Source of the DNA: Dromiciops gliroides
Lineage: Eukaryota
DNA: 64,000 bases
Reading direction: 5' to 3'
Assembly: GCF_019393635.1 (NCBI RefSeq)
Contig: NC_057863.1
Coordinates: 490,584,948 to 490,648,947, forward strand
Position 1 is the first letter of the stretch. Each line of letters opens with the position of its first letter. The notes beneath the pieces were generated by a model. That model searched no databases. It was not told the DNA's origin and worked only from the letters and a program-made list of their open reading frames with translations. A program made the position numbers and the translations under genes. Below are positions 2,783 to 61,313 of this stretch, piece by piece.

Positions 2783-4679
2783 CTGGAAATAGAACAAAAT
2801 CCACTTTGTTAATGAAATGCTTTGGAAAAATATTTTTTGTGTGATGGAAAAGTGGCCAACAACTCTGCATATTTTGGGTTTAAACTATGCAGATGTTCTG
2901 ATATGTACCTTTGTTTTCTCATGGGTCCTACAGACTGAGGGTTGAGACATCTACAATGCAGAGCCTGAATCGCATGTAACTAAAGTACAGTTTGCTCTGA
3001 CTTTAAGCAGGGGCAGGCTTATTCCCGGTAGAGCTTATATAATGTTTTTTAAAAGCATGGTATAGTGGGGAAAAGTATTGTATGTAAATGAGAAGATCCT
3101 TAAAAATGGGTTGGACTCTGACTACATGTAAAACTAACAAAGATCAAGAGAACAGATTATGAATCATACCTTCTTCAAGACAGAAGTGGCAGACTACTAG
3201 GACAAAATATTGTATACATTGTCCAATACAACTGTATTGTACAGTTACTCAATCAAATGTGTCTGCCTAATGTTTTGTTTCATTTTTTAGTCTGGATCTC
3301 CCTATCTTGTCTAGGTTGTAAGTGCAGTGGCCTCTGATCATCTTGATCCCACTGCTGACCAACAGGGAAGCTTCACCAGACTCTGTCTTGAGCCAGTTTC
3401 AATCTCTTGTGGCAGATTGATGCTCTACCTACCACCACTATATTTGTGTTGGACTTAGCTGCAATAGAGCGAAAGCCAATCATGTCTGTCACTAGGAACT
3501 TCTGAACTCAAGTGATTTCACTGGCCTCAGGCTCCACAGTAGCAGTAGCAGTGGGTGTGTGTGCCACATTCTTAGCTTAACTGATTTTCTTGAGGGGGGG
3601 GGTGTTGAATATGGAGGGAATGGGAATTTAGAAATGACAGTGAAGACTAATGGCATTAACAAACCTTTTTTTTTTTTTTTAAAGAAAAAGGATTGTAAAG
3701 GAAAGCCAAGATTCTAGGCCTAGCTCTACCACTTGCTAGAACTGGTGTGAACTAGTCAAGTCAATTCACATCTCTGAGGATCAGTTTGCTCTTCCATAAA
3801 ATAACAGGGTTAGACTTGATGAGCTTTAAGGTTCTAATTCTAAATCCTATCATCCCATATATACTTTATATATAATATATACATCCTAAATCCTATATAT
3901 ACTTTCATCATAACTTGAAAGATCTATCTACTGCTAATGAACCTATAATTACTACCGATTTCTCAAGGCAGTTTTTAAACTTTAAGTCATAGAAATGTAT
4001 TTTTTTCCCAAAGGATGGAAACTCCAACCATTAAAATTATAATTATATAAGTGTACATATATTTTTATACATGTATTGAATAGATGACAAATGATAAGGA
4101 GGAAATTTTTATATTGTTTTGTAGTCAAATATCTCCATCAAGGGGAGGTTAAACATTAAAACATAATTATTAGTAATAACAAAAAAGTATAATACAAGAA
4201 TTGTAATAAATTAATATTTCTTATTAATGTTGCTCATAATCTAGTTACTATAGAAACAAACAGTAATTTTTGTTTTTTGGATCTGTGATTTTACTGGGGG
4301 AACTCCAGGTGAGGAAACTCCCTCTGCCAAACCCAAATAATAATACTAACAATTTTTTAAAAAATCAGTAATTTAATTAAAATGTCTGGAGCCTAACTCT
4401 ATTATGTTGTATAGTAAAATGCCACCCATGGAACTCTAGAAGGTAAAATCTTGGGGTTTCTCAGAATATAGTTTGAAAATCCTTGGCTTAAAGCATCAAG
4501 TACCAAGATATGGGAGGAGGTAATAAGAGTACATCTAACTGTCATTAATAGGTCCAAGTTACCAGGTCTGTACAAACTACATAAAGAGTACTGAAAGAAC
4601 AGGGGGATGTCTTGGCTGAGCTCCCATCCTTGATCCTTGAAAACTCATAAAGGTCAAAGAATATGAAAAAGGAAGCTTT

Positions 4680-5640
4680 TTTCCCTTCCCCTTTGTCTTT
4701 TTTAAAGTAGTATTTTATTTTTTTCTAATTATATGTAAAGACAAATTTTAATATTCATTTAAAAATTTTGAGTTCCAAAATTCCCCCTTTCCTCTCTCAC
4801 TGGCCCCCTTCCTAGAATGGTAATCAATTTGACCTAAGTTATATATGTGCAATCATGTAAAATGTATTTCCATCTTAGTCATGTTGTGAAAGAAAAAAGA
4901 GATAAAAGGAAAAAAAACACCCCAAATAAAACATTTTAATCTGCATTCAGACTCCATCAGTTCTTTCTCTGTATGTAAATAGCAATTTTCCTCACGAGAC
5001 CTTTAGAATTGTCTTAGATCATTGTATTGCTGGGAATAGCTAAGTCATTCAGAGTTGATCAAAGTATAGTGTTGCTGTTCCTGTGTACAATGTTCTCCTG
5101 GTTCTGCTCATTTCACTTTTTATCAGTTCATGTAAATTTTTCCAGGTTTTTCTGAAATAATCTTGCTTGTCATTTTTTATAGCACAGTATTCCATCACAA
5201 TTATATACCACAACGTGGTCAGCCATTCTTCAATTGATGGGCATCCCCACAATTTCCAGTTCTTTCCCACCACAAAAAGGGTTGATATAAATATTTTTGT
5301 ACAAATTGGTCCTTTTCCCTTTTTTTGAAAATCTCTTTGGGATACATTTGATAGTGGTATTGTTGGATCAAAGGGTATGCACAGTTTGACTGCCCTTTGG
5401 ACATAGTTCCAAATTGCTCTCTAGAATGGTTGGTTCAGTTCACAACTCCACCAACAATGCATTAGTGTAGCCTTTTCTACACATCCCCTCCAATATTTGT
5501 TATTTTCCTTTTCTGTCATATTAACCAATCTGATACATGTATGGTAGTATCTCAGAGCTGTTTAAATTTACATTTCTCTGGTCAATAGTGATTTAGAGCA
5601 TTTTTTTCATATGCATATAGATAGCTTTGATTTTTTTTTA
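4680..5640 (-). mobile_element. LINE-1 3' end, comprising the ORF2 C-terminus and the 3'UTR.
   Basis: Minus-strand ORF remnants read ...CAYPLIQQYHY... and ...WLTTLWYIIVMEYCAIKNDKQD..., which is typical of an L1 ORF2 C-terminus. An A/T-rich tail with tttgagttccaaaattcc sits at the low-coordinate end. Near-identical 3' ends recur at 11440-11890, 50540-51190 and 55400-56130. Confidence 0.8.
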
Positions 5641-5649
5641 TCTGAAAAC

Positions 5650-5960
5650 TGTCTGTTCCTATCTTTTAAAAAAGAAAGTTTTAAAAAGAAGAAATATAAA
5701 CTATCAAAACCATATTAAAGAATGCTCCAACATTCTAACACTAGGAGAACTGCACATTAAAACAACTCTGAAGTTCTCTACCTCATATCTATCTGACAGG
5801 GAAAGATGACAAGAGACAAAAATGGCAAATACTGGAGAGGCTGTGGGAAGACAGCCACACTAATGCACTGTAGGAGGAAATTTGTCCAACCATTCTAGGA
5901 AAGGGCTTGGAATTTTACCAAAAAATTCACTAAAATGTATGTGTCCTCTGACCCAGTGGT
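5650..5960 (+). mobile_element. LINE-1 ORF2 fragment.
   Basis: The plus-strand translation reads ...KTTLKFSTSYLSDRER... and is similar to the L1 ORF2 segment (…MQIKTTLRYHLTP…) seen again at 46600-47345. Confidence 0.6.
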
Positions 5961-5984
5961 ACCACTAATTGTTATTTTATAGTT

Positions 5985-6215
5985 GTTTTCAGTTGTGTCT
6001 GACTTTTCATGGCCCTTTTTGGAGTTTTCTGGGCAAAGATACTAGATTGGTTACTATTTCCTTCTCCAGCTCCTTTTACAGATGAGGAAACTGAGGCAAA
6101 CAGGGTTAAATGACTTGTCCAGGGTCACACATCTAGTAAATGTCTGAGGCCAGCTTTGACCTCAGATCTTTCCAATTCTTGGCCTGGCATTCTATTCACT
6201 ATTGCAGGGCCTCTT
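5985..6215. mobile_element. MIR/MAR1-like SINE, an older family with a ~100-bp non-tRNA 5' region plus a shared core.
   Basis: The sequence is gttgtgtctgacttttcatggcccttttt...tttccttctccagctccttttacagatgaggaaactgaggcaaacagggttaaatgacttgtccagggtcacacatctagtaaatgtctgaggccag. The same unit recurs at 9690-9880 and 28020-28270, with a fragment at 26745-26825. Confidence 0.75.
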
Positions 6216-8859
6216 AAAATTTTTCCACTTGTGACCCCTTTTTGCCTGAGAAAATTTTACATGATCCCTGGCATATAGATTTACATGACCTTTTTCTGTT
6301 GCCACATTTTTCACAACTACCAAATTCAGTTATGTGACTCCACATGGAGTCATGACCCATAATTTAATAAGCTTTGCACTATGCTTCCTACATGCCCTGA
6401 TATCACTAATACACATATATAAAACAACAAAATTATATATAGGGTGGAGCCACATATACGAAAGTATTTATAGAACAATTTTTGTAGTAGCAAAGAACTG
6501 GAAGAAAAGCAGGGACCTTCTTTTGCCTTTCTCTGTATCTCCAGCACTTAGCACAATTCTTGGCACATATAAATATGCTTAATAAATATTTAGTGACTGA
6601 CTGACCAAAAGTATGTGCCCAATGAACTGGAAATGGATGAAAAATTGTGGCATACGAATATAATAGAATATTATGCTATAAGCTATGACAAATATTAAGA
6701 ATTTAGAGAAACCTGGGAATGATTGTATGAACTGATACAAAGTAAAATAAAATCAGAGCTAGAAGAACAATTTACCCAATGACCACAATAAGGTCAAGTA
6801 AAACAATATGGTAGTACTTCAGAACTTTGATCATTGCAGTGATCTATCAGCACTCCAGAGGAATGATGGTTAAATATGCCTTCTGCCTTTTGGCAAAGCA
6901 GTGAACTATAGGTCTGGAAAGGGGATACATTTCAAGACCTGGCCAATATGTTGATTTGTTTTTCTTGACCATACTTATCTGTTAAAAGGAAGGGTTCACT
7001 TAGCAAATGAGGGAGTCATGGGGGAGTGATAGGGATGACTGAAAAAAAAGAAACTTAACAAAAGCTTTTTTTTGAGGCAATAGGGGTAAAAAGCCTTTAA
7101 AAAAAAAAAGAAAGACTCATGGGGAAATAGGGGGAAAAACCATTCTAGCTATAATTTATGATGAAAGGTATCACAGGACTCACTTGAGATGGGAAAACAT
7201 GACCCTGATTTTCAAATAGAGAAAGAATCTGGAGGGCTCCATACAAAGACAAATTGTTTCTCTATCTAGACCACAGTTAGCCCTACTAAGAATAGCCACA
7301 GTTAGTCCTACTTCCACTAAGTGTAGATTTGGAGCACTCATGGTTGCTTTTCCTGATATTCACCCTTATACTGTACTCATACAAAAAAGTATTTACCCTT
7401 GACCTATATTTGATGGATCTGCTTTGTCAACCAACCATTCAAAACTGGGTTTAATGTAGTTGTCCCACTTTGTATAGATTTTTAAAGAATATGTATTCAT
7501 GCTACTGTGTCCTTGATTGTAAGCTTAATTAGTCATTTGATAATTTTTAAAATAGTGGTAGAAAAAAGGTACTTTTGCTAGGACAGAAATATGTAGAAAT
7601 CCTGCTTGAAAAGGAGTTTGGCATCTCAGTCCTTTTCATTTCAAAATAAAACTTATAACCTTGGCAGAGTCCATGAAATTAACAAGATATAAATACTGAT
7701 CTCGTTCCAAGAAGAAATGTCTCTATCTCAGAGAAAAATGCACAGGGAAAGCACAAAGTTGCACTACTCTAGAGTTTCTCTTTGTAGGTCAAGGACAGTC
7801 TATGGGCTGGAAGCCCAGTCATAAATTCAACTAAAAGGGTTTTTTTGTGTTTTGTTTTAAAGTATGATTAATTTTCTCTACTGACGACCTTTTTTCAATC
7901 CCTCATTATGATATGGAGGTGACCCTGGGCTCTTGAAGGCAATAAGAACAGAGCACAAACACTGGCAGGTGCTTCCAAGCTGAAAAAAATGGAGTCTAGC
8001 AATAGTCTAGATGTTTGACATCTGAGGTCAAGTGTAGCTAAGTTTAGAAAGACACATTACTAGGCTGATCACTAGGTTATGAATTTTTCAGCATGACAAC
8101 TCTCAAAAGGTCACCTATTAAGTTATAGAGAGGTTACAATCTGTATGAGGGGGTGGGAGTGCCTACAGCAAAAACACAGTTACCTGAAATATTGAAATGT
8201 GAATAATTTAGAGGCAAATTTATCTACAGCAGAAGTCTCATAAGAACATAACTCAATATGAAATGTAAGTACCTCTCTGATGATAAATGGTCAGCCATAT
8301 AGTGGTAAATGGTGTGAATGTCATGACTTGTTAGTTTGCTGGTTCTTGACTATACAAAAAAAATCTCCCCTCCCCCAGAACATACTCTATCTGTTAGAAT
8401 ATAACAGTAATTTAAGTAGATATAATATATTTAGGTTTCAGTAAAGCATTCAAAATGTATCTCACACTGGCCTTATGGATAAGATGGGAAAATGAGGGCT
8501 GGATAATACTGTTAGACTCAGAAATGGCTCAGCAACTGAACTAAAAACCTAGTCATTAACAGGTTTATGCTAAACTGGAGGGAAATGTCTAGGGCAAATC
8601 CTTCAGAGATCTATGCTTGATCCTGTGAAGCTCAATATTTCTGCCAATGACTTAGATAAAGCAATAGAAAGCATATTTATCATATTTGCAGGTGTCACAA
8701 GGCTAGTAGGGATAGCTAACATAGTAGATGAAAAGATTTAAAAAGCTTCTTAGAGGCTAGAATGACAGGCTAAAACAAACAAATAAAATTTAATAAATAT
8801 AAATGTGAAGACCTACATCTTTATTTTTAAAAATATTCTTCCAATTACAAGTAAAAATA

Positions 8860-9880: not shown

Positions 9881-11439
9881 ATGAAAAGGGTTAGGGAATT
9901 TTGACAGACTACAAATTCACTATGATTCAAATGGCTAATATAGCGGCAGAAAAAGTTAACATGATTTTAGGATGTTTTAAGAGAGGCAGAGTATGTAGGA
10001 CTAGGCAATAATCCCACTGTACTTTTACCCTGATCAGACCCCATCTGGAATACTGTGTTCAGTTATAGGCATCACATTTTAGGAGGATGTAGACAAACTG
10101 AAGTATGTCTAGCAGAGGGTAAATAGGGCTGCAATAGGACTGGAAAGACCACACCGCAGAAGAAATTGTTGAAGGAAATGTGGAAATTTAGCCTGGAAAA
10201 AACTTAGGGGCTAATAACAATAATCTTCAGGTCTCTGAATGGCTTTCAAGTAGAAGACATTTAAACTTGTTCTGCTTGCCCCAGAGGACCAAACTACAGG
10301 TGATAGATGGAAGTCGCAGAGAGACAGATTTAGGCTTGATTTAAGAAAAAATTTCCCAAGATTAGAGTTGCCTAATAGTGAAATAGGCTGCCTTGGGAAG
10401 TAATGGATTTCCTCTTACTGGAGGTCTTCAATAAAAGCTGGATAATTACTTCTCAGTGATGGAATAGAGGGGTTTCACAGATAGGCATTGATTAGACTAG
10501 ATTACATGTAACATCCCTTCTAACTGAGATTCTATGACAATGATTATGTGATCCTAAGTCTCTTCATAAGAGATTTTTAAAGTTAAAATGCAATCAGGCC
10601 ATTAGTGTCAGGATCCAACAATGTGTGTAACTATAGAAAGACTTATTTACTTAATAATTTACTACTCTACTTTTAGAAAAGTACATATTTCAAAGAGATC
10701 ACAAAAATGTTATAAAATTCAGAGGATCTAGCTATTGCTGGATTATTTGAGTATGGTTCTTTATTAAATATAGCACAACAAAATAAAGTATACCTGGGCT
10801 ATGAAGTCCATTATTCTTCCCTTGATATGAATCTCTTCAAGTGGGATTTGAATCCCAGAAAGATCCTGAAGGCCAGCTTTTATGTTAGTGTAAGGGTTGG
10901 TATCTGGTAATGCATAATCTAAACAGTAACAATTTAATTGTTAGGTTTTTAAAAAGTGTCTTTGCCTAGTATAATTTTTTAGTTATTTTGCCCCTTACTG
11001 CTTTTCCTTAACCTAATACACTTATACTTTATGGTAAATGTAAAAATAGTCATTTATTTTGAATAACAGAGGATGAAATACAAGAAAATACAACTTTTAG
11101 ACAGCAAAGAGTTGGCAGCATTTGCAAAAACTAGTTTTTTTCTTTTAAATTTTAAGAATCTTGTCCCCCTTCTCTTCTCTCAATGTTTTGAATAACAAAG
11201 TATTTCAACATTTTTAGCATTTTCTTTTTTAAAATATGTAATAGAAATCCAAGTATATTTCTTGAATAGTTGAATTTATCCTTTAGTATACTACTAGGAT
11301 TTGTAACATTCACTATTAAATTCAAGAACACTCTTTGGTTGCTTATGTATGTGATAATTCATAAGCTATCACATGACATCTATGATATAAATATCTGATT
11401 TTTTTCTTTTTAAAATATTTTTAAATTTTTATTATTTAT

Positions 11440-31599: not shown

Positions 31600-31812
31600 T
31601 TTTAACAGTCGGTTAGGATAACTGAAAGACGCCAGTTTTTCAAGGACCACCCTTTTGGGGAGGAGACGAACAGTCCGCCTGCTGCGCACGTCAGACTGCC
31701 TGCGGGACTCGACTTCCGGGGTGGAGAGAACGGAAGTGGGGCTTTTGCCTGCTTGGCGGGACTCCTGACGGCGCGGCACAGACTCTCTCTCTCCAAAGGT
31801 GGCCTTTTCGGT
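31600..31812 (+). promoter_or_regulatory. LTR-derived fragment inside a PARP4 intron that is unusually CpG-rich and ends in a strong plus-strand splice donor.
   Basis: The stretch caaggaccacccttttggggaggagacgaacagtccgcctgctgcgc is homologous to the LTR at 15119-15240 (gaaggacctccccttttgggggagggagactgaacgctc…). It contains about 15 CpGs in ~200 bp (acgtcag, cttccgggg, ggcgggactcctgacggcgcgg). It terminates in ggtttg|gtgagttttt. Confidence 0.5.
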
Positions 31813-32491
31813 TTGGTGAGTTTTTATAAGGAATATAGACTAAGCTTAGACTTAAGACGATTTGTATTGTGTTTCTACTTTCCTATCCTTCTAATCAACA
31901 TCACCTTGTGACTACCATAACAATAAATAAAAAGGTCTATCTAGAAAACCAAAAGCTTCTTCCATTTACTAGTTTGGGAGATAAATTAAGGGAAAGGTTA
32001 AGTAGGGGAGATTTATGATCTAATATCCAATTTTAAATCTCACACCACCTAGCTGCCCCTCACTCTTTACTTCTTGACTGATGCTTTCTTAAGTTCTCTC
32101 TTCTACTCCTTTCTCCCTTTTCTTTTCCTTAGGTTTGTTGACTTTAGGTCCTCCATTAACACTTGTGCTTGGGCTAAAAAGGCATATACTGACATATCTT
32201 ATGGAAGATAATTAAATTATTTGAAACTAAATAGGGTCTGCTGTTTACATACATTACCAAATCAGTAACAGATGTAGCAGATTATCCCATTAGGCTTTTA
32301 TGACCCCTTTTCAAAGCTCTAAGACTAAAAAGCTCTTATTTCTATGGTCTTTTTCTCTACTTTTGCAATTCTTTTCTCTTGTAGTAATTTTTCAGTCAAA
32401 CAAATGCCTTTTCTCTTAATAATACTAAAACAAGTATGTTTAATAATTTGTGACCAGAACAAAGACAAATAAATAAATAAATCAGTCTCAC

Positions 32492-40194: not shown

Positions 40195-40402
40195 TGGAAC
40201 TGCTTGTTCTTTCCAAAGAAGGTGAGTGACGAGTGACTCCTGAAGATTCACTGCATCTATAATTCTCAATACTTAAGAGCATTCCTTGTTTGAGGCAGTC
40301 CCATAAAAAATCTATGTTTGCGATGGAGATATGAAACTTCTGGACAGTACTCAGTTCACCAGAGCTCAGAATAGCATCATGATCTAAGATGACATGTGTG
40401 CA
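40195..40402 (-). CDS. PARP4: PARP4 exon in the BRCT domain. Encodes CTHVILDHDAILSSGELSTVQKFHISIANIDFLWDCLKQGMLLSIENYRCSESSGVTRHSPSLERTSSS.
   Basis: The translation matches human CTHIILDNADVLSQYQLNSIQKNHVHIANPDFIWKSIREKRLLDVKNYDPYKP...ASSSEV. The acceptor is ttttttag|TGC and the donor is GTTCCA|gtaagt. The exon is 208 nt. Confidence 0.8.
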
Positions 40403-43717: not shown

Positions 43718-43850
43718 CTTACAGTTTAGTATAGAGGAAACAGTTCCATTGTTTTTCTTAATGTTAGCTCTTAGGAGTTTCTTCTGCATGTACTGTAAAC
43801 TGTCATCTTTCAAATAGAATCTGTAATTTGTAAATATTCCCATGGTTATC
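43718..43850 (-). CDS. PARP4: First coding exon of PARP4. It has 7 nt of 5'UTR, then an ATG at 43843 on the minus strand. Encodes MGIFTNYRFYLKDDSLQYMQKKLLRANIKKNNGTVSSILNCK.
   Basis: The translation aligns to the human PARP4 N-terminus MVMGIFANCIFCLKVKYLPQQQKKKLQTDIKENGGKFSFSLNPQ, and the ATG corresponds to human Met3. The Kozak context is gataaccATGG. An upstream acceptor ttttaaacag|GATAACC implies a non-coding exon 1 further 5'. The donor is TGTAAG|gtatta in phase 0, matching the next exon (CTH...). Confidence 0.75.
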
Positions 43851-44242
43851 CTGTTTAAAAAAATGCAGAAAAATGAAGTGAGCAGAACTGGAAGAAGACT
43901 GTAAACCATAACAGCAAAACTGTAACAATGATTACCTGGAAAAGACTTACCTATTCTGATCAATGATCCAAGAAAATTCCAAAGAACCCATGATGAAAAA
44001 AGCTGTCCATCTCCAGAGAGAAATGAATTCTCAATGTAGATTGAGGCATATTTTTTCCCTTTATTTTTTCTTTCATTTATTTGTCTATTTATGTTTTGCA
44101 AGGTGGCTGATAAAGAAATGTTTTGTATGACTTCACATGTATAATGGGTAGCCTACTGCTTGATTCTCTATGAGTGGGGGAGGGGCTGGAGGGAAGGAGA
44201 GAATTTGGACTTCAGATTTTTAAAACTGAATGTTAAAAATAG

Positions 44243-44395
44243 GGGGCAGATAGGTGGTGCAGTGGATAAAGCACTGGCCCTGGATTCAGGAGGACCTGAG
44301 TTCAAATCCGGTCTCAGACACTTGACACTTACTAGCTGTGTGACCCTGGGCAAGTCACTTAACCCTCATTTCCCCGCCAAAAAAAAATCAATTTA
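44243..44395 (+). mobile_element. tRNA-derived SINE upstream of the first PARP4 coding exon.
   Basis: The sequence is gggggcagataggtggtgcagtggataaagcactggccctggattcaggaggacctgagttcaaatccggtctcagacacttgacacttactagctgtgtgaccctgggcaagtcacttaaccctcatttccccgccaaaaaaaaa. Confidence 0.9.
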
Positions 44396-46460
44396 TGAAT
44401 AAAAATAAATAATGAAGATGTATTTTCTATACTGATATACATAATTATTTAATTTTAATTTAAAAATAGAGGCAAGTGCTAGTTTAACAACATTTAAGAA
44501 TGTTTTTGTAAAGTGAATTATTCTTTGCTTTAGGAACATAAAATGAGTTTGTTCAGAGAGATAATCTCTTTATAGTTTTACTTTGTTCTGGATAAATATA
44601 ATTATTACTAAATTTGGGTGGAGCTATATGCATAAAACATATCCACACTAAGTCTGACATCCATTTCACCACCACAAAAATAGCTACTTTTACAATTATA
44701 AGCTAAAATGTGTTGGTTGTGGTATGATGCAACAATAAAAGTTATTCAGTCCAACCTGCTCATTCTATAGAAAGCCAAGGCCCAGAGAGGAGAAGGGACC
44801 TGTCCAAAGTCCTGGCAGAGGGTTAGGATCTGCCCCCAGGTCATTGGACTCCATGGGGTCTACTCATCACACTTTATCTTCTGGCAACCTTTGACATCTG
44901 GGCTGAATATACTATTAAATACAAACTAATACATGAGTCTCTAATAAGATCATAATGAGGACATGTAACAGATTTAAGCTGAAGGTCAGTGATGATTCAC
45001 AATTGTTTATATATTTTTATTTTTCAATGATAAAAAATCATATTTGTGTGGAAATAGAGGACTTTTACAGGGAAGAAACCTGGGTCTTTCCACTAAACTC
45101 TGTAAATTCAGATACTCATCTCTTTTTAGTTAAGAAAAACTTTAAAAAAGTGATCTGAGAGAAATAATTTTTAGTGGCAATAAGTCACTAAAATTCAAAC
45201 ACGAAAGGAGTTATTTGATGAGAAATTATCAAGATGTTTGTGAAAACTTAAACTTACTTTAATGCATCAGAGTACTTTATATATGAATTGTTTCTTAGAA
45301 AATTAAATAATTTTAATGACAATTAAATACATATGCATTTAACAATAAATCAGAGGATACTGATCTAATTCAAGTTTAATCTTTCCCAGTTAGTGGCTTA
45401 CCTCAGAAGTTTTCAAAGTGTGGGACATAAGATCAAAATAATGCTAATATCTTTTAAAATTTCTAAATAATAAATATTGATAAAAATGACCTCTGTAAGC
45501 AAGTTTTTAGAGTTTTTATTAATTTTTAAGAGTGTAGAGGAGTCCAGAGACCAAAAATTTGAGAACTGCTGGCTTACATTTTCTTCTTCCTGTCATAGTT
45601 ATAATTTGGTTAGTCTAAAATAATTTAGTAGGGATGGTTGATTTCAACTTTTATTCTTTTATATTTACATATATTTTAAAGTACTGGATTGAAGATACTA
45701 TAAAATATTTATGATTAGATTTAAGGAATAAATACCAGGATGATGTAGAAGCAATAGATATTAGCACCCATAGTTAGTTCTTGGCATTCTAGCCTTATGC
45801 ACATAGGACTATTTTCATTTGTAAAATGATGTTTTTCAATCAATCTAAAAGCACTTATTAGGCATTTATTCTGAGGCAGGCACTATACTAAGTGCTAGGG
45901 TTAAAAAAAAGGTAAAAACAATTCCTACCTTCAAGGAGCTCGCATTCTATGAAGCAGACAACATGTAAATATCTAGGTACATGAAAGATATATACAGAAA
46001 AGATGGGAGGTAAGCTAAGCAGGAAGGTTTTGGTGGGGAGGATATGGGGTAAGACTAGAAAAGTCTCCTATAGACGGTGAGATTTGAGCTGACACGCTGG
46101 AAGCTAAGAGGTGAAGTTGAGGAGAGAGAAAGTATTACAGGCATGGGGTACAGTCAGTGAAAAATCACACTAAAACATGGAGTTTGTGTGAGGATGAACA
46201 AGTAGTCAAAAGCAGTTGACTCAGAGTGAGTGGAGACAGTAAAGTGTAAGAAAATTTAAAAGGTAGGAATGGGACAGATTATGAAGGGCTTAAATGTCAA
46301 ACAAATGTTTGATCCTAGAGTTAATAAACCCTAGTGACTTTACTGAGCAGGGGGTCACATAGTGAGACCTGTGCTTTAGGAATCTCATCTTGGTAGCTGA
46401 GAGGAAGATGGGTTAGAGTAGGGTAAGATAGTAATAAGGAGACAAATTAAAATACTATTG

Positions 46461-46587
46461 TAAGGGCAGCTAGGTGGTGAAGTGGATAGAGCACTGACTC
46501 TGGAGTCAGAAGAACCTGAGTTCAAGTTCAGCCTCATATACTGACCCTGGGTAAGTTACTTACCCCCAGTTGCTTCCAGTTTTAAAA
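46461..46587 (+). mobile_element. tRNA-derived SINE, a diverged copy.
   Basis: The sequence is gggcagctaggtggtgaagtggatagagcactgactctggagtcagaagaacctgagttcaagttcagcctcatatactgaccctgggtaagttacttaccccc. Confidence 0.8.
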
Positions 46588-46599
46588 AAGTGCTATTAC

Positions 46600-47345
46600 A
46601 AAGACCCAAGCTTTGGAGGCAATAACTCACCAATTGACTAAAATTGCTAGGAAAACTGGAAAGCTATTTTGGAGAAAATAGGCATAGACTAACATCTCAT
46701 ACCATATACTAAGATAAGGTCAAAATGAATACATATTTAAGACATTAAGGGTGAAACAATAAGCAAATTAAGGGAGTGTGGAAATTTTTATCTGTCAGAT
46801 CTATGGATAAGGGGAAAATTTATGACCAAACAAGAGATAAAGGGGATCAAGGGATTATTTCCCATAAATGTATAAAATGGATAATTTTGATTACATTAAA
46901 TTAAAAAGTTTGCGCGCAAACTAAAACAACACAGCCAAGATTAGAAGAAAAGTAGAAGTGGAAAAACTGGGAAAATTTTTTTCTCCAAATTTCTCTGATA
47001 AATACCTCATTTCTCAAATATATAGGGAACTTAGTTGAACTTACAAAAATAAGAGTCATTCCCTAATTGATATGTGGTCAAAGGATAAGAACATGAATTT
47101 TTCAGAAGAAATCAAAACTATTATCAAAAGAAAGTCATATGAAAAAAAGCTCTAAATCACCATTGTTTAGAGAAATGCAAATTAAAACAACTCTGAGGTA
47201 CCCCCTTACATCTCTCAGATGGGCTAACATGATAGAAAAGGAAAATAACAAATGAAAGGTGAAAGGTTATATGGAAGAACTGGAACACCAATGCACTACT
47301 AGTGGTGTCATGACTGGTCCAGCCATTTTGGAGAATAATTTACAA
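46600..47345 (+). mobile_element. LINE-1 ORF2 fragment.
   Basis: The plus-strand translation includes …LIIREMQIKTTLRYPLTSLRWANMIEKEN…, which is a typical L1 ORF2 segment. Confidence 0.7.
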
Positions 47346-48235
47346 CTATGCCCAAAGGGCTATAAAACTGAGTCTTCTTACACTTAATTTCCTCCCCTTA
47401 ATTCCTTTGATGCCCAGTTAAAATGCCATCTTCAACAGGAAGCCTTTCCTAATCTTCTTTAATGCGAGTGCCTTCTCCCTACTTTCCTCTGTATATATCT
47501 TATTTGTACAAAGTTAATTTCATGTTATTTGCCAATGATAGTCTGTGAGTTCCTTGAGATCAAGAACTGCATTTTGTGTTCTTTGTATGCCCAGTGCTTA
47601 GCACAGTGCTTGGCACAGAGTGGGCACTTATGACTGACTAGCTTTTGAATTATAATCAGGAACACATGAGACTCAGAAGCTTCTACTAAAAACCCAATGA
47701 GAGCTTGCAATACTGTACAATTTTCCAAAGGTCAAAAAAGATAGTTTTACAACCAACCTGACATGCAAAGCTAAGTATAATCCTACAAAAGGAAAAAAAA
47801 AGTATCTTTAGTGCAATAAAGGAATTTTCAACACTTTTGATGAAGAGACCAGCACTGAGTAGGAATTGAACTACAAACACAGAAGTCCAGCTAAATTTAG
47901 GAAGGTAAATCTATCAGAACAGATGAAAGCAGCTGTATGATGATGACAGTGATGAAGTAGTGTTACCCTTTTAATATGTGAAGAAAAACAAGTGTCCTTT
48001 AACATCTTCAAAGGGCATTGAGGGGGGTAAATAAGAAAAGAGAAGTGGATTTATTATGCTTATTTGAAGAAGATAAAGGCAGGGATGGCAAAAAGGAATA
48101 CCAGTGTAGAAAGGAGGGAAAGGGGGTAGAAGGTGCTATTTTCTCACTACTGGGGTTTGTCAGAATCAGTATAGAGGGAAGGTGTGGCCATCCAGTGAAC
48201 CTCAGTCTAGTCTGAGAGGAGATAAAGGAGGCTTT

Positions 48236-48239
<4 letters not shown>

Positions 48240-48283
<44 letters not shown>
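48240..48283. repeat. (AC)n microsatellite of about 22 units.
   Basis: It is an uninterrupted acacac… run. Confidence 0.95.
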
Positions 48284-48287
<4 letters not shown>

Positions 48288-48639
48288 TTAATGTAGAAAT
48301 ACCTCTAACTAAAGAGAGAAATATGTGCAATGTTGAGAGAGTTGTTAAGAGGGAGTAATAATACTGGAGAGGAAGGAGTTAGGAGCAAAAACCTATCTGT
48401 TCTCCCATCAGTCAACAGGATGAGGTCAAATTTCATTTCTTACATTTTATTCATCGAGACACTCCCTTGGCTCCCTTCCCACAATCAAAACTTTCCCTGC
48501 TGTCTAACTGTCAGAGGAGTTAGGGAACTAATGGCTATCTCTAACCACATTTTAGTTTCAGAACCTCTTCTGAGAGACAACTAATAATGGAAGAAATAAA
48601 AGCCAAAACCCATAATACTTTAGAGATTGAGGGACCTTC

Positions 48640-48740
48640 CAATCCAACCATTCCTATCTATATCTATATCTATCTATCTATATATACGTATGTATGTATG
48701 TATAGATTTCTATATAAGAACACACACACACACCCACACA
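48640..48740. repeat. Compound (TATC)n/(TATG)n/(CA)n microsatellite.
   Basis: The sequence is ctatctatatctatatctatctatctatatatacgtatgtatgtatgtatag…acacacacacacccacaca. Confidence 0.9.
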
Positions 48741-50215
48741 TATATAAAAGATTATACTAGACAGGCAGTCTACATTATATTCCCAACAATGGGCATTCAA
48801 CAAACATCCCATTTCTCTTTAAGTCTCCTCAAGCTTCAAAACTGAAATGTTTTAAAGAACAAAATGGTGATACATACACTCTGAATATTTCCTTACCACC
48901 ACATCAATTCCAAACTTCTCGTTTTCTTCTTCCTCAAAATCCCACCTTACTACATGAAAGTAAAATAAAACAAACAATTATACCACTTAAGAGTGTTATG
49001 GGAACTTAGAGATCTTCTTAAAGAGAAACTTTATTTAAGAACCAAGTGACCTCAAACATATGGTACATTTAAAAGATAATAATAACCTACCACCTGAACT
49101 TAAGGAAGAATCAATCAGGGGAGGAGATGGTAGTTTAAAGCCAGCTGTCACAGAGCATAAGTAGAAGCAAAAGCACCCCGGGAAAGCAGAGCAGAACAGT
49201 GGCTGGAAAGGGCAAGAAGAGGCTGCAGGTTTAACACAGGGAACAGAGAGATAAAATGGAGTTGAGAGATGGGTTCATACACACCTGGCAGGGGGATTTA
49301 TACCCCTAGATCCAAGAACTTTCTGGTTCCAAGTCCTGGACTGTTTTACAGAAAAGAAAAAACCCAACTCAAAACCAAAAGAAAACGCCCAGTGACTCAG
49401 AAACACTTCCTTTCCCCTCCCAGAAAACACCCTTGGTCAGCTGGCCCATACCAGAGAAGGGAAAGGGGCGGGGGCATGGGAGCAGACTCTGCTCCCTTCT
49501 CCTCCCCCCATCACATTCTGCTGAAAAGGGATGGCAGAAGTGGGGCAACAGAGGACCTAGTGAATTAACCTCTGCTGATGGAACATGAAAAATATACACC
49601 CAAGAGTTTTAATTCTTCAGACAAATACCCTCCTTAGTTGGGGATAAGAGATTTGTAGGTTATAGATTACAAATCTCAGAGGCTGTCAAATGCAATCCCC
49701 TCATTTTACATAAGGGGAAACTAAGCACCAGATAAATTGACTTGTTCAAGGTTATACAGGTAGCAAGTGTCAAAAGTGGGATTAAAATTCAATCCAAGTG
49801 AGAGTTCTAGGCAGAGGGGGCAACCAATGAAAATTTCCAGAGTTGGGAGATGGAGTGCCTTGTGTAAGGAATACTAATATCAAGGAGACCAGTGCCACAG
49901 GTTGCAAAGTCCCTGGGAGCATGAGGATAGAAGGAATTAGAATGCAAAGGCAGAAGGGGTCTGGCTTTGGAGGGCTTCAGAAGCCAGATGATTTTATATT
50001 TGACTTGTAATTTAGGAAGATCACTTTGGCAGCTGAATGGAGGATGGACTAGAGTGGGGACAAACTTAAGGCAGGGATACCAACTAGTAGCTCAGGTATG
50101 ACATGATGAAGGCCTGTACGAGACTGGCAGTATCAAATAATATGAGAAATGTTGTGGACATATAAACACAGGACTTGGCAACTGACTGGATATGAGAGTG
50201 AGGAGTTAAAGATGA

Positions 50216-50352
50216 TACCTAGTGGTGCAGTGGATAGAGCACCGGTCCTGGAGTCAGGAGTACCTGGGTTCAAATCCGGCCTCAGACACTTAACACTTAC
50301 TAGCTGTGTGACCCTGGGCAAGTCACTTAACCCCAATTGCTTCACTTAAAAA
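50216..50352 (+). mobile_element. tRNA-derived SINE nested in an older repeat.
   Basis: The sequence is cctagtggtgcagtggatagagcaccggtcctggagtcaggagtacctgggttcaaatccggcctcagacacttaacacttactagctgtgtgaccctgggcaagtcacttaaccccaattgcttcac. Confidence 0.9.
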
Positions 50353-50539
50353 CAAAAAAAAAGATGGTAACTAGGTTGTGAGACTGGGTGACTGGATGGT
50401 AGTACAGTCAATGGTAATAGAGAACTTAGGGAGAGGTACCCTCCATCGTAATTTGGAAGTTAGGAAGAGGGGAGGTTTTAGGAGAAAGACGTTAAGTTCA
50501 GTTTTGGATATGTTGAGTTTATGTTGTCTACAGCCTATC

Positions 50540-51190
50540 TTCTTTTTTTTTTTAATAAACATTTTCATTTAAAGTTTTGAGTTCCAAATTCTATCCCTTC
50601 TTCCCTTCCTCCCCTCCCCAATTCCTGAGGCAGCAAACAATCAGATATAGGTTATGCATGTGCAATTATGCAAAATGTTACCATATTAGTCATCTTGTAT
50701 AAGAAAACTCGAATAAAAGAAAAACAAGTTAAAACTAACTAGCATGCTTCATTCTGTGTTCAATCAACATCAGTTTTCTTTGGAGGTGGAGAGTGTGCTT
50801 CATCAATAGTCCTTTGGGATTGTCTTGGACCACTGTATTGCTGAGAATAGTCATTCACACTTCTTCATCCAACAGTATTGCTGTCTCTGTGCACAATGTT
50901 CTCTTGGTTCTGCTCACTTCACTATACATCAGTTCATACAAGTCTTTCCAGGCCTTTCAGAAATCATCCTGCTTGTCATTTCTTATAGCACAATAATATT
51001 CCATCACCATCATATACCACAGTTTGTTTAGCCACTCCCTAACTGATGGGCATTCCTTTGATTTCCGCTTCTCAGCCACAAAGGAAAGAGCTGCTTGAAA
51101 CACTTTTGTATAAACAGGCCTTTTTATCTTTTTTGGGGGATGTCTTTGGGATATAAACCCAGCAGTGGTATTGTACAGCCTAACTTCTTA
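50540..51190 (-). mobile_element. LINE-1 3' end.
   Basis: It is near-identical in layout to 4680-5640 and 55400-56130. It contains tttgagttccaaattctatccc and the ORF2 C-terminal remnant …IPQFV…/…HHHHIPQFV…. Confidence 0.8.
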
Positions 51191-52089
51191 AACTGTGGGT
51201 CGAGATCCATAACTGAATGTGGAGGTCAGGAAAAAATTGGCAACCATAAAAGGTTATGTATACCTATTTTATATACCTATACACCCGGGGTCCTGTAAAA
51301 ATTTCTCAGGCAAAAAGGGGTTGTGAGTGGAAAAAGTTTAAGAAGCCCTGGTCTATGAGACATCCAGTTTAAAATGTTCAGTGGGCAGTTTGAAATGTGA
51401 AAGTGGAGGTGAGGAGATAGGTTAGCGCTGGACAAAACTGAGAATCACAGGAGCTGAAGAGATAAAGTAAGAATTGGGTGGCTAGGGCTAACTTTCCCTA
51501 CTTGTCAGACAGATAATTGGGAGATGACTATTTTTGGAGTGAACTTTTAGATACATACCTGCCTACCCCTTGGGAAATTTCAGAATGCTGCTGTGACCTA
51601 ACCAAACAAAAAAATGGGGCCCTCCGCCAAAAAAAAAAATCAACAACAAACCAATGGATATTACCAAAATAGACCTTAAGCAAAAACATCCCCAGTTAAA
51701 ACAACAAAACCCTTGAGAGTTTTGCTCCTTGAAGGTAAGGACAATCTTTTTGCTTCTATTTGTATTCCAGGAGTCCAGCACAGTGCCTGGCACATTGAAA
51801 GCACTTTAAGAGATATTGGTTGACTGTAGCTTTCAAAAGAGGAAGCACAGTTCTAAGGATAGAGTCAGGAAGGCTCTAACCTAGTTAAAACCCCTCCTGG
51901 GACATTAGCCCTATTACTATGGACGCCTCTCTTTCATAATTGTCTGGGCCTCAGTTTTCTAATCTCTAAAATGGAGATAGTACCTGTAGAGCTTACCTCA
52001 TGGTCTCGTTATGGGGCTCTAATGAGAAAACATACATGGACAGTGCTTTGGAGATTTTAAAGCACCAAAGAAACGTCAGTTATTATTGT

Positions 52090-53100
52090 AAACATCTTTA
52101 GCCCCCGGAGGAGCGTTGGCCCTGCTTGACAGCATCAGTTCCAGCTTAGATAAGGCCCCATAAACTTCTTGGTTGGTTGCTTCCTAGTCCTCTGCACCGC
52201 CTTCCGCCTTTGGGAGTTGCTAAAAGCAAATTTCTACTACGAAAGGTGGTTTCTGGAAACGATTCTCACTCAAAGTAAAGGAACCACAGTTCCCAAAGCC
52301 AACCTCCAAAGCCGCCTCCACTCCCGCCTCTCTTTCCAGCATCAGCGGAAGGAGCTTCTCGACCCAGTCAACGACCAGTAACGTCCATTTCAGGGCTGTG
52401 TCCTGGGGGTTGTAGTTCGCAAACCAGCCTGCGGCGCCCTGCCTCTAGGACACTGAAGGCACAGTTGGCCTACATTTCCCAGATGCCTCAGAACCCCGGC
52501 GGGTGGAGCCCCGACGGGGTTGGAGGCGGGGCTTCGGTGGAGGCGGTGGCTCATTTGTAAATGGAGCGGGAGGCGCTGGAGGTGCCGCGGCTCTGGCGCC
52601 GGTTGGGAACTGAACTGAGGGGCCAGAAGAGGCGAGAGTGGTAATTTGGGGCCGCGGGTGGGGTTCGGGGTCGTTTCCGGGTGGTTGAGGCTGGGGGGGA
52701 AAACAGTTTTGTCCTTGGGCGCCTGAGCCCGGCAGCGTTTTGATGCCCTAGGGATGCCCCGGAGCCCCGCTCTGCGGGAGGCCCGGGGGTTTGGGGGAGA
52801 GGGAAGACTGCTCCATGGTTGTCCAGTTCGGGGCCTGGGGTGAGGGTGAGGGCGGGGACGCCCTCTCCACTGTGCCCCCGACTTGTCACAGCTTGCTCCG
52901 GACGCTTTTTGCTGTAGTGAGATGAGGGTCCGGTTTCTGGGAGGTTTTAAAGAGTTTCTGCTTTAAGTCCCCTGCTGGGCTCCTTTCCCTTTTAAAGTCG
53001 CTCTTGATCGTTTTCTGTGCTTTGATGCTGATGGGTTGTGGAACCGTCGCTATCGGTTTCAAGGCTTTTAAATCCTTGGTTTAGAGAAGAAAAGAAAAAG
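52090..53100. promoter_or_regulatory. CpG island between the divergent 5' ends of PARP4 (minus) and CENPJ (plus). It is probably a bidirectional TATA-less promoter.
   Basis: This is the only long stretch with dense CpG in the window, for example ccccggcgggtggagccccgacggggttggaggcggggcttcgg and gccgcgggtggggttcggggtcg. It is GC-rich, unique sequence and begins directly after a MIR-like repeat ends at ~52080. It contains ETS-like CTTCCG/GGAAG sites and a partial ZNF143/THAP11-like ACTACA..TTCCCAG motif at ~52466-52490. Confidence 0.6.
52500..52639 (+). other. CENPJ: Putative CENPJ non-coding exon 1 (5'UTR). The TSS is not determined.
   Basis: A plus-strand donor GCGAGAGTG|gtaatttgg lies at 52639/52640 inside the CpG island. 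Exon 2 (57647) begins 91 nt before the ATG, which implies an upstream non-coding exon. The 5' boundary is arbitrary. Confidence 0.3.
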
Positions 53101-57646: not shown

Positions 57647-58166
57647 GTATTGGATATCAACAGTCAGATCCAACACCTGTATGCTACAAAAGCTTTGACG
57701 CTATTTTAACTTAGTGCTTCAGATTACAATTTTCCTGATGCCCACTTCTTCAGAATTAAATAGTGGGCAAAATTTTTTAGCTCAGTGGATGTCCAATCCT
57801 TCTCGTGCTGGTGTGATACTGAATCGTGGATTTCCTAGTTTGGAAACAGGGAGAGAGAATCAGTCAAATGCAAATAATTCCTCTAGTTTTACTGTTAAAA
57901 GCACAGATTTTTCAGATGGCTGTAGCTTTCTAAGTGATGATTCACTTTGTGAAGAGCAGATCTTGGATTCTAAAAGCCCTTACGGAGTGCAGTCAGATAC
58001 AAAAGAAACACATGCAGTCTTTCTTCACACTAAAAAGACACAACAATTATTGCCATGCAAAGATGCCCTGAGCCACTGGGAAAATGGCAGAATTGATGTT
58101 GAAACTGATGTGGGTGATGCCAAAGAAGCTGCTTATAGAGATCCACTTTTCAAGAAACTTGAGCAG
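57647..58166 (+). CDS. CENPJ: CENPJ exon 2. It carries 5'UTR and then the start codon, with the CDS running 57738-58166. Encodes [41 protein letters not shown]...AYRDPLFKKLEQ.
   Basis: The translation matches the human CENPJ N-terminus [41 protein letters not shown]...KDPLFKKLEQ. The acceptor is ctctctgcag|G and the donor is GAGCAG|gtaaat. The CDS part is 429 nt (143 codons). Confidence 0.88.
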
Positions 58167-59882: not shown

Positions 59883-60006
59883 CTCAAAGAAGTCCAACAG
59901 AAGAAACAGGAGGAGTTGAAGAGGCAGCAATTAGAACAGATCCAGAGGCTCCTGGAGGAGCAAGAGAAACTACTGACTATGGTGTCTGGGCAACAGACAC
60001 ACTCAG
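59883..60006 (+). CDS. CENPJ: CENPJ exon 3. Encodes [41 protein letters not shown].
   Basis: The translation matches human [37 protein letters not shown]. The acceptor is tttgaaaag|CTC and the donor is ACTCAG|gtaaga. The exon is 124 nt and starts in phase 0. Confidence 0.85.
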
Positions 60007-61313
60007 GTAAGACTTAGTAGCCATATATGTGACTCAGTTTATATAAATGCTTTATGTTCACTGATTTTCTTTCCATTATAGTGTTTCGATAAGTGGTTGG
60101 TAGGATCCTTTTTCATATATAAAGATCGGTACTCAGGCAATAAAAATATAGGTTTTTGGGAGATGATAGTAGGATAGATATGAACTAGAATCTGGGTTCT
60201 CTTTGTTCACCTACAGAATGGAACTAGAATTGTGTTCTGACACTTTTTATGTTGTAAGCTATAATGAATGATAGACATCGAATCTAGAATAAAGATTTAC
60301 TGTAATGTGTTGTGTCGTGTCTAGAAGAAGGTAACTGGGAAAATGAGAGATCTGGAAACTAAGCTCTGTTAAGAACAGTTAAGTAAAATGGGAATGTTTA
60401 GCTTGGAGAAGACTTAGGTGAGATATAATAGTGGCTCAGCTACATGAAAGGATACCAAAATAGCTTAAACATGTTTGTCTCGAGGGCAACTAAAACTAAT
60501 GGATAAAAATTATAGGAAAGCAGATTCCTGCTCAAAGTAAGGAAGAACTTCCTAATGAATAGAGCTATCTTTATTGTGTGAACTCTTGGCAACTTGCATT
60601 ATTCAGGAAGAAGCTGGATGTCAGAAGTTGTTCCATTAGCAATGAGGTTTGGCTATTTGACCTTTAAAAGTCCCTTCCAACTTTGAGATTCTACAGGTAG
60701 CATGGGTCATAAAGTGGGGAGGGCATGGATGTGATTGGTGGCATTAACTTAGATTTAGAGCACTTCAATTCTGACTTCTAGATGCACGTGAGGTGAGTTA
60801 GGAGAATAGCTGGGATCCCAGTAGCGAGGGAAGTGGTTGTGATAAGGTTGGCCTAGTACTGTTTTGACGTGTGCTTGAGTTACTGATATGTACTGATAGG
60901 GAATTTTTTGTAAGCCATATATCTTTTGGATCCTCAGAAGTATAGGATTAGGAATTTTGGGAGTTAAAGGGAGCATTCTTTGTTCCTTCAAGGAAATGAT
61001 TAAATAAGAGTATAGAGAACTAAATGCATATTCAAGAATGTGCTGCTGGAAAAAAATGTACTTCATTACTGAATAATGCTACTTTTCCTGAATTTGAGTG
61101 CCAACAAATATGTCCCTAATTAAAATCGTGTAGAACTTTGTGTTGAAAATACCAGCATTATTTCATTTAGCTTATTTCATTAAAATGGCACTTTATTTAT
61201 TATTTCATTTCTGGTTAAGTAGATGAGTGGAAGGGATAGGATTGTAGGAGTAGATTAGTAAAATGAGAAAATTTTTCATAAAATATTAATTTTGCTTGTG
61301 TTTTCTTCATAAG

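Follow-up and report, generated by a model that had tools for sequence, protein, structure and literature searches.

A conserved CENPJ core promoter between head-to-head PARP4 and CENPJ genes in Dromiciops gliroides, and its candidacy as a shared bidirectional promoter

We analysed a 64,000-nucleotide stretch of the genome of Dromiciops gliroides (contig NC_057863.1, positions 490,584,948 to 490,648,947 of the forward strand; hereafter the window, numbered from its first letter), in which minus-strand PARP4 and plus-strand CENPJ face each other across a single CpG island. On the alignments described below, this island (52.15–53.05 kb) is certainly orthologous to the core promoter and exon 1 of CENPJ. 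The architecture of that promoter is, as far as sequence comparison reaches, conserved across birds, marsupials and rodents, which we regard as the firmest new detail of the locus. The island is also a candidate for a shared bidirectional PARP4/CENPJ promoter, a reading whose prospects of being right or wrong we judge to be evenly balanced.

The CENPJ core promoter and first exon

Database matches to the plus-strand exons are named centromere protein J, and CENPJ exon 2, which carries the start codon, is 54% identical to marmot and 45% identical to turkey. Both the coding exons and the promoter with exon 1 align with those of other species, as in an orthologous gene. To place the 5′ end we relied on L008, a eutherian CENPJ transcript in the form of a Logan contig. 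Because this contig opens with an Illumina adapter (positions 1–24), its 5′ end is a cDNA end. Exon 1 of L008 maps to marmot, into an island some 4.8 kb ahead of the CENPJ ATG exon, and a MAFFT alignment of L008, the marmot island and window positions 52440–52720 contains four blocks of identity (a slash outside parentheses marks a splice boundary here and below): CTACAyTTCCCAG, just upstream of the L008 5′ end; GG(C/T)GGCTC(A/T)TT(C/T)GTAAATG, within CENPJ exon 1; GGTTGG...TGAAC; and G/GTAAyT. The 5′ end of L008 aligns to position ~52519 of the window. The alignment thus places the predicted CENPJ transcription start near 52.52 kb, with an exon 1 spliced to the ATG exon at 57647, the acceptor of which is conserved and is exactly the point at which L008 departs from the window and marmot genomes.

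The earlier note on this DNA had placed CENPJ exon 1 in the island and had it spliced from 52.64 to 57.65 kb. The island exon and the 57.65-kb acceptor stand, but the GTAATT at 52.64 kb is less secure, as L008 continues past the conserved GTAA and is spliced from a donor some 150 nt downstream. Because of this read-through, position 52641 is not the sole candidate for the exon 1 donor. Scored with a roughly calibrated position weight matrix (PWM), which picked an incorrect GT for the PARP4 ATG exon and all scores of which are therefore only indicative, the candidates are 52641 (4.9), 52658 (9.6) and 52840/52846 (10.4–10.5).

Upstream of the CENPJ start, the window shares with marmot the block AGCGGAAGG, the sequence AACGTC and, on the opposite strand, a further ACTACA..CCCA motif. 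We describe the conserved arrangement as a module that consists of an M4 motif facing PARP4, a gap of 51–53 bp (measured between the 5′ ends of the two M4 motifs), an M4 motif facing CENPJ and, 66–79 bp further on, a GGCGGCnCnTTYGTAAnTG element. The window, marmot and turkey loci each have one and only one copy of the module (Table 1). Its last element in the window, GGTGGCTCATTTGTAAATG (52545–52563), lies in CENPJ exon 1, 76 bp past the CENPJ-facing motif. Shuffled 64-kb windows contained a mean of 0.1 divergent M4 pairs. A metagenome scan with the CENPJ exon 1 motif returned 33 matches, none of which was accompanied by the module, and we rejected all of them as chance matches.

M4, ACTAYRNNNCCCR, is a core-promoter motif bound by THAP11/HCF-1 that overlaps the Staf/ZNF143 site (PMC5006282). 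Sites of the ACTACANNTCCC/Staf-binding-site (SBS) type are over-represented in human bidirectional promoters, and a fragment with a single SBS suffices for transcription both ways; the same work quotes a definition of a bidirectional pair by transcription start sites (TSSs) less than 1 kb apart (PMC3082894). Like ZNF143/Staf–THAP11 M4 promoters (ACTAYRNNNCCCR/ACTACANNTCCC), the window island carries one exact and two one-mismatch M4 motifs together with an ETS-like GGAA block (AGCGGAAGG at 52344). Two of the motifs (52416–52404, minus strand; 52469–52481, plus strand) are divergent and flank the presumed TSS region. The third M4-like motif, ACCACAGTTCCCA (one mismatch; 52283–52295, plus strand), is found in the part of the island nearer PARP4, with 12 nt between it and a candidate GTGAGA donor. 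In the literature that we searched, neither CENPJ nor PARP4 is among the studied ZNF143/M4 bidirectional pairs, no paper combines PARP4, CENPJ and ‘bidirectional’, and nothing meaningful links the CENPJ promoter to ZNF143.

Two further observations concern the CENPJ transcript. An upstream ATG in exon 1, which arises from the conserved TAAATG, opens a reading frame of 27 codons in the window (52561–52644) and 24 codons in L008 (70–144), both of which stop at the conserved GGTAAyT. The corresponding frame has only 3 codons in marmot, and turkey has CTG in place of the ATG, which suggests that the conservation of this element may act at the level of DNA or RNA rather than of a peptide. In addition, the first methionine of eutherian CENPJ (MFLMPTS...) is absent from the window, which reads ..IFLMPTS (57729–57740), and the translation start should therefore be the second methionine, at ATG 57738.

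The head-to-head gene pair and its order in other genomes

The minus-strand exons belong to PARP4, the vault PARP. Their database relatives are PARP4 by name, and BRCT, WGR-like_PARP4, PARP (catalytic) and VIT exons follow one another in order on one strand, with 48–78% identity to langur. The repeats of the window and the protein identities of both genes suit a mammal outside the eutherians, such as a marsupial. The exon with the start codon at 43843, which reads MGIFTNYRFYLKDDSLQYMQKKLLRANIKKNNGTVSSILNCK (MGIFTNYRFYLK...), was matched by tblastn and blastn to the ATG exons of langur, camel, murid and turkey and to the transcripts L006 and L007, and its acceptor is conserved.

PARP4 and CENPJ thus lie on opposite strands with their 5′ ends facing and no gene detected between them. 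The strands of the exons and a scan for islands bear out the head-to-head arrangement around one CpG island that had been noticed earlier. The two start codons are 13.9 kb apart, and 52151–53050 is the sole CpG island in that interval; the whole window has a GC content of 37%, a CpG observed/expected (o/e) ratio of 0.14 and no runs of N. Only 31 CpGs, scattered rather than clustered, occur in the 8.3 kb between 43850 and 52150. Between the genes we found neither a notable open reading frame (ORF) nor an Rfam family nor a tRNA (ARAGORN), and hence nothing of these kinds that would point to an intervening gene at 44–52 kb. The description of these ~8 kb as almost entirely repeats goes further than can be demonstrated: copies of short interspersed elements (SINEs), L1 fragments, an (AC)n run and MIR-like elements are abundant, but only 28% of 43850–52150 has another copy inside the window. 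A GC-richer stretch at 48.3–50.1 kb was considered as a hidden promoter and rejected, as it consists of a MIR-type SINE and unremarkable sequence. When the whole intergenic region was compared by blastn with marmot, langur, camel and turkey, the window had no significant match outside SINEs, and the homology of the island surfaced only in the targeted MAFFT alignments. A scan for bacterial promoters and terminators was irrelevant or empty.

The same pair is found head-to-head in turkey (CM000962.2), in the order CENPJ(−)/PARP4(+). Turkey CENPJ has 1261 amino acids (aa) with Tubulin-bind_CPAP and Tcp10_C domains; the start codons lie at 5565 and 9280, and the single strong CpG island (5801–6650) adjoins the CENPJ ATG exon. 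On goat chromosome 12 the order is ATP12A, RNF17, CENPJ, PARP4, MPHOSPH8, PSPC1 (PMC11874128). In camel (KB016566.1), a gene with chromo and ankyrin domains, like MPHOSPH8, comes after PARP4. In human, an interval of a 2-Mb duplication (a copy-number variant) runs from SGCG to SPATA13, PARP4 and ATP12A without RNF17, CENPJ or MPHOSPH8 (PMC3279563), which is incompatible with the goat order and indicates that PARP4 is not beside CENPJ in human. CENPJ and PARP4 are therefore immediate neighbours in the window, in turkey and in the goat list, and turkey also has the same divergent orientation, whereas at human 13q12.12 PARP4, ATP12A, RNF17 and CENPJ share a chromosome arm with PARP4 apart from CENPJ. 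The window differs from turkey in the distance between start codons (13.9 kb versus 3.7 kb) and has the CENPJ promoter module in common with both turkey and marmot. Because turkey has the same pair, goat the same neighbours and the human interval neither CENPJ nor RNF17, the order in the window is, on this comparison, the ancestral amniote one and the human order derived. This agrees with the suspicion of a non-human, possibly ancestral order, and it is already visible in public annotation.

Two artefacts in the comparative data deserve mention. The camel gene model (L003 40578–46830) joins the C terminus of PARP4 to the chromo and ankyrin gene, and a marmot ‘203 aa gene’ (L001 4879–5570) is an ORF inside the CpG island.

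The 5′ end of PARP4: a shared or a separate promoter

In five genomes (window, langur, camel, murid and turkey) the acceptor of the PARP4 ATG exon, ttttaaacag/GATAACCATGG in the window, lies 7 nt ahead of the aligned start codon, and the spliced transcripts L006 (bird) and L007 (eutherian) part from the genomes exactly there. Because this position is conserved and is spliced in both a bird and a eutherian, a non-coding PARP4 exon certainly must exist upstream of the ATG exon, as the earlier note had supposed. A SINE-family repeat (43870–44412; up to 26 copies in the window) starts about 20 nt upstream of the acceptor, against its polypyrimidine tract.

We propose that the PARP4-facing M4 motif (52416–52404) would also launch PARP4 in this species. 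A short non-coding exon 1 would start at about 52.35–52.40 kb on the minus strand, end at a donor in or just outside the island (GTGAGA at 52269, 52303, or the MIR-derived GAG/GTAAGC at 51996) and be spliced across a repeat-rich intron of ~8.4 kb onto the conserved acceptor (43851). In that case the island would be a single bidirectional promoter of the ZNF143/THAP11 type, with TSSs no more than 150 bp apart, and would give PARP4 and CENPJ a common housekeeping on-state. In support of this proposal, the island is the only CpG-rich DNA available and a conserved M4 motif within it faces PARP4. Moreover, eutherian PARP4 promoters are of the CpG type, the 8.4 kb between island and ATG exon matches the murid distance, and neither AATAAA nor ATTAAA, the polyadenylation hexamers sought, is found in the 1.9 kb of minus strand below 52.52 kb. 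The GTGAGA that had been pointed out at 52264–52269 as a possible donor is indeed present, and the 9-mer that contains it, TTCTCACTC, is identical in the marmot island at a roughly corresponding place.

Other observations weigh against a shared promoter. The donor TGA/GTGAGA is weak (PWM score 3.7, against a locus mean of 6.3); among the other minus-strand donors near the island, 52303 scores 5.1, and the stronger one at 51996 (10.9) sits in a MIR-like SINE. As marmot PARP4 presumably uses the eutherian promoter described below, the shared 9-mer is not a conserved PARP4 donor in that species. The CpG density of the island is asymmetric, most of it on the CENPJ side of the motif pair, and the conserved blocks on the PARP4 side are less than 200 bp from the CENPJ TSS and may thus be proximal elements of CENPJ only. 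GC skew, considered as a sign of two-way transcription, was rejected as a discriminator because its flip is equally present in marmot. Furthermore, where PARP4 5′ ends are seen in the comparative loci, they lie at least 1.65 kb from the CENPJ module. In turkey, a galliform transcript places PARP4 5′ untranslated region (5′ UTR) exons at 7903–7990 and 8088–8240, in CpG-poor DNA that is separated from the PARP4-facing motif by 1.65 kb and from the island by 1.25 kb; this transcript contig may be 5′-incomplete.

The eutherian loci add to these objections. There, a promoter of the CpG type and its short non-coding exon 1 precede the PARP4 ATG exon by 6.5–8.4 kb (in murid, exon 1 ends at 1739 and the ATG exon is at 10168; in langur, exon 1 ends at 3490 and the ATG exon is near 10000). 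The promoter island is homologous in murid (L009 1451–1800), langur (L002 3151–3950) and camel (L003 from 4911, into an assembly gap), with an interferon-stimulated response element (ISRE)-like block GAAAGTGAAA, a block CGGAAGCAC and an exon 1 end ...GGCGGGATCyTCCGrGCAG/GTGCGTGGG. An nhmmer profile built from the murid and langur islands recovers the camel orthologue (E = 8e-12). Neither the window, nor turkey, nor the 5 kb of marmot sequence that adjoins the module toward PARP4 gave a match to this profile, and searches of the window with the individual blocks did no better than shuffles, so that a PARP4 promoter of the eutherian type was not found in the window. Conversely, the murid island, the only one upstream of PARP4 in L009 and 8.4–8.7 kb from the ATG exon, has neither an M4 pair nor the CENPJ exon 1 motif, and no CENPJ module occurs within 10 kb upstream of the PARP4 ATG exon in either langur or murid. 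The eutherian island and the window island are thus alike in being CpG-type and in their distance from the ATG-exon acceptor (8.4 kb in the window, as in murid), but no counterpart of the blocks of the former is detectable in the window, and neither the M4 pair nor the CENPJ exon 1 motif is present in the eutherian island. On these comparisons, PARP4 in eutherians is served by a promoter separate from the CENPJ module, at a distance that exceeds 5 kb in marmot and 1.45 kb in murid, and a bidirectional promoter is not the eutherian arrangement.

Several side observations concern the eutherian loci. The ISRE/IRF-like sequence GAAAGTGAAA (L009 1484–1494; L002 3217–3227) lies about 250 bp upstream of the eutherian PARP4 exon 1 donor and hints at an interferon responsiveness that the CENPJ-type module lacks. 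The absence of the CENPJ module from the 10 kb upstream of langur PARP4 (L002 1–10000) fits either separate eutherian promoters or, in Old World monkeys, a gene order rearranged as in human. The 62-nt exon 1 of the eutherian transcript L007 was mapped by local alignment to langur, camel, marmot, the window and turkey and was set aside, as its scores were no better than those of shuffles; a gapped alignment of this exon with the langur island was no more than suggestive. An exact-pattern metagenome scan for the 6.8 kb upstream of the murid contig gave no match.

A rival reading is that the island serves CENPJ only, with the usual unstable divergent antisense RNA, and that PARP4 starts from a separate, CpG-poor promoter with its non-coding exon in 44–52 kb, much as turkey PARP4, and eutherian PARP4 with an island of its own, seem to do. 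The turkey 5′ UTR in CpG-poor DNA, the dedicated eutherian promoter apart from the CENPJ module and the skew of island CpGs toward CENPJ all favour separate promoters, as do strong minus-strand donors at 51558, 49284, 48945, 48896, 46630 and 45401. Against them, the interval 43.85–52.4 kb holds no CpG cluster, no recognisable homologue of the eutherian PARP4 promoter blocks and no nhmmer match, much of it is SINE, L1 and MIR debris, the langur and murid PARP4 promoters are CpG-type, and the bird transcript may fall short of the true 5′ end. We consider separate promoters quite possible, if short of probable.

Very improbable, by comparison, is that the two genes overlap, with PARP4 exon 1 beyond the island in CENPJ intron 1 (53.1–57.6 kb). 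Overlaps of 5′ ends are known for other divergent gene pairs and give this idea a precedent, but 53.05–57.6 kb shows no CpG enrichment or conserved block, about one-third of it is SINE copies, and none of the comparative loci places 5′ sequence of PARP4 beyond the module toward CENPJ. That the adjacency itself is an artefact of assembly or of a lineage-specific rearrangement, an idea prompted solely by the different human order and favoured by none of the observations, is effectively refuted by the same head-to-head pair in turkey, the same neighbour order in goat, the same promoter module in the same place in marmot and the absence of N runs from the window. What stands of the bidirectional promoter suggested in the earlier note is therefore the head-to-head arrangement, the single island and the CENPJ start; a PARP4 exon 1 within the island, with its weak donor and the separate 5′ ends seen elsewhere, is a plausible candidate.

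Features of the window and what the locus means

The coordinates of the features are collected in Table 1. Apart from these, a CpG-rich patch at 31600–31850 (17 CpGs) lies within a PARP4 intron, adjoins a SINE and contains the ETS-like sites CTTCCGGGG and ACGGAAGTG. It ends in a strong plus-strand donor, TTG/GTGAGT, antisense to PARP4, and could be a candidate intronic antisense promoter with a first exon.

Table 1. Features of the PARP4–CENPJ locus (window positions unless a contig is named; in the module rows the first-named M4 faces PARP4)
Feature	Position	Strand	Details
M4 motif, exact, PARP4-facing	52404..52416	minus	ACTACAACCCCCA (ACTAYRNNNCCCR); conserved in marmot (4998-4986, minus) and turkey (6250-6262)
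M4-like motif, CENPJ-facing	52469..52481	plus	CCTACATTTCCCA, one mismatch; 53 bp from its divergent partner
ETS/GABP-like block	52344..52352	plus	AGCGGAAGG; conserved in marmot
Module, window	M4 5′ ends 52416 / 52469; exon 1 element 52545		gap 53 bp
Module, marmot L001	M4 5′ ends 4998 / 5049; exon 1 element 5128		gap 51 bp
Module, turkey L004	M4 5′ ends 6250 / 6198; exon 1 element 6132		gap 52 bp
CpG island	52151..53050		GC 0.59, CpG o/e 0.64, 50 CpG; only island between PARP4 and CENPJ
CENPJ non-coding exon 1, minimal extent	52519..52640	plus	5′ end by alignment to L008; ends G/GTAATT (52640/52641)
CENPJ exon 2 (ATG exon)	57647..58166	plus	ATG 57738; acceptor ...tctctgcag/GTATTGG; donor CAG/GTAAAT
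CENPJ exon 3	59883..60008	plus	
Other CENPJ exons	61.3, 62.5 kb	plus	
Candidate PARP4 exon 1 donor	52263..52271	minus	TTCTCACTC = GA/GTGAGAA; GTGAGA 52269-52264 (TCTCAC on plus)
PARP4 ATG-exon acceptor and polypyrimidine tract	43851..43880	minus	ag 43852-43851; ttttaaacag/GATAACCATGG
PARP4 first coding exon	43718..43850	minus	ATG 43843-43841; donor AAG/GTATTA (43718/43717); from sequence and translation
PARP4 second coding exon	40238..40402 (approximate bounds)	minus	BRCT region, CTHVILDHD...
PARP4 exons after the ATG exon (second coding exon included)	40.4, 38.0, 32.6, 31.2, 29.6, 26.5, 24.6, 23.6, 21.9, 21.2, 10.8, 2.8-2.3 kb	minus	
PARP4 intron 1 and/or intergenic DNA	43870..52095		CpG-poor, 31 CpGs
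SINE copies	43870-44412, 46446-46589, 50219-50378		
Decayed L1 ORF2 fragments	47097-47252; 50960-51187	plus; minus	
(AC)n run	48239-48283		
MIR-like elements	~49600-49850; ~51940-52095	minus; plus	recognised by eye

In itself the locus is ordinary and matters little: PARP4 and CENPJ are ordinary housekeeping genes, divergent gene pairs with a CpG island are textbook material, and the gene order can be read from the annotations of goat, turkey and other species. We offer, tentatively and as a rather doubtful scenario, that in marsupials, and perhaps in ancestral amniotes, PARP4 and CENPJ may have stood under one ZNF143/THAP11-type promoter with divergent M4 motifs about 52 bp apart, and that eutherians later gave PARP4 a promoter island of its own, with an ISRE-like element, several kilobases away. 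Such a turnover would have uncoupled the two genes and let the primate rearrangement part them harmlessly. Should PARP4 indeed share the promoter in marsupials, as against a separate ISRE-bearing island in eutherians, the locus would neatly exemplify promoter turnover ahead of a primate rearrangement. The CENPJ core promoter, conserved by this comparison between bird, marsupial and rodent, offers a defined target for work on the regulation of a microcephaly and centriole gene.

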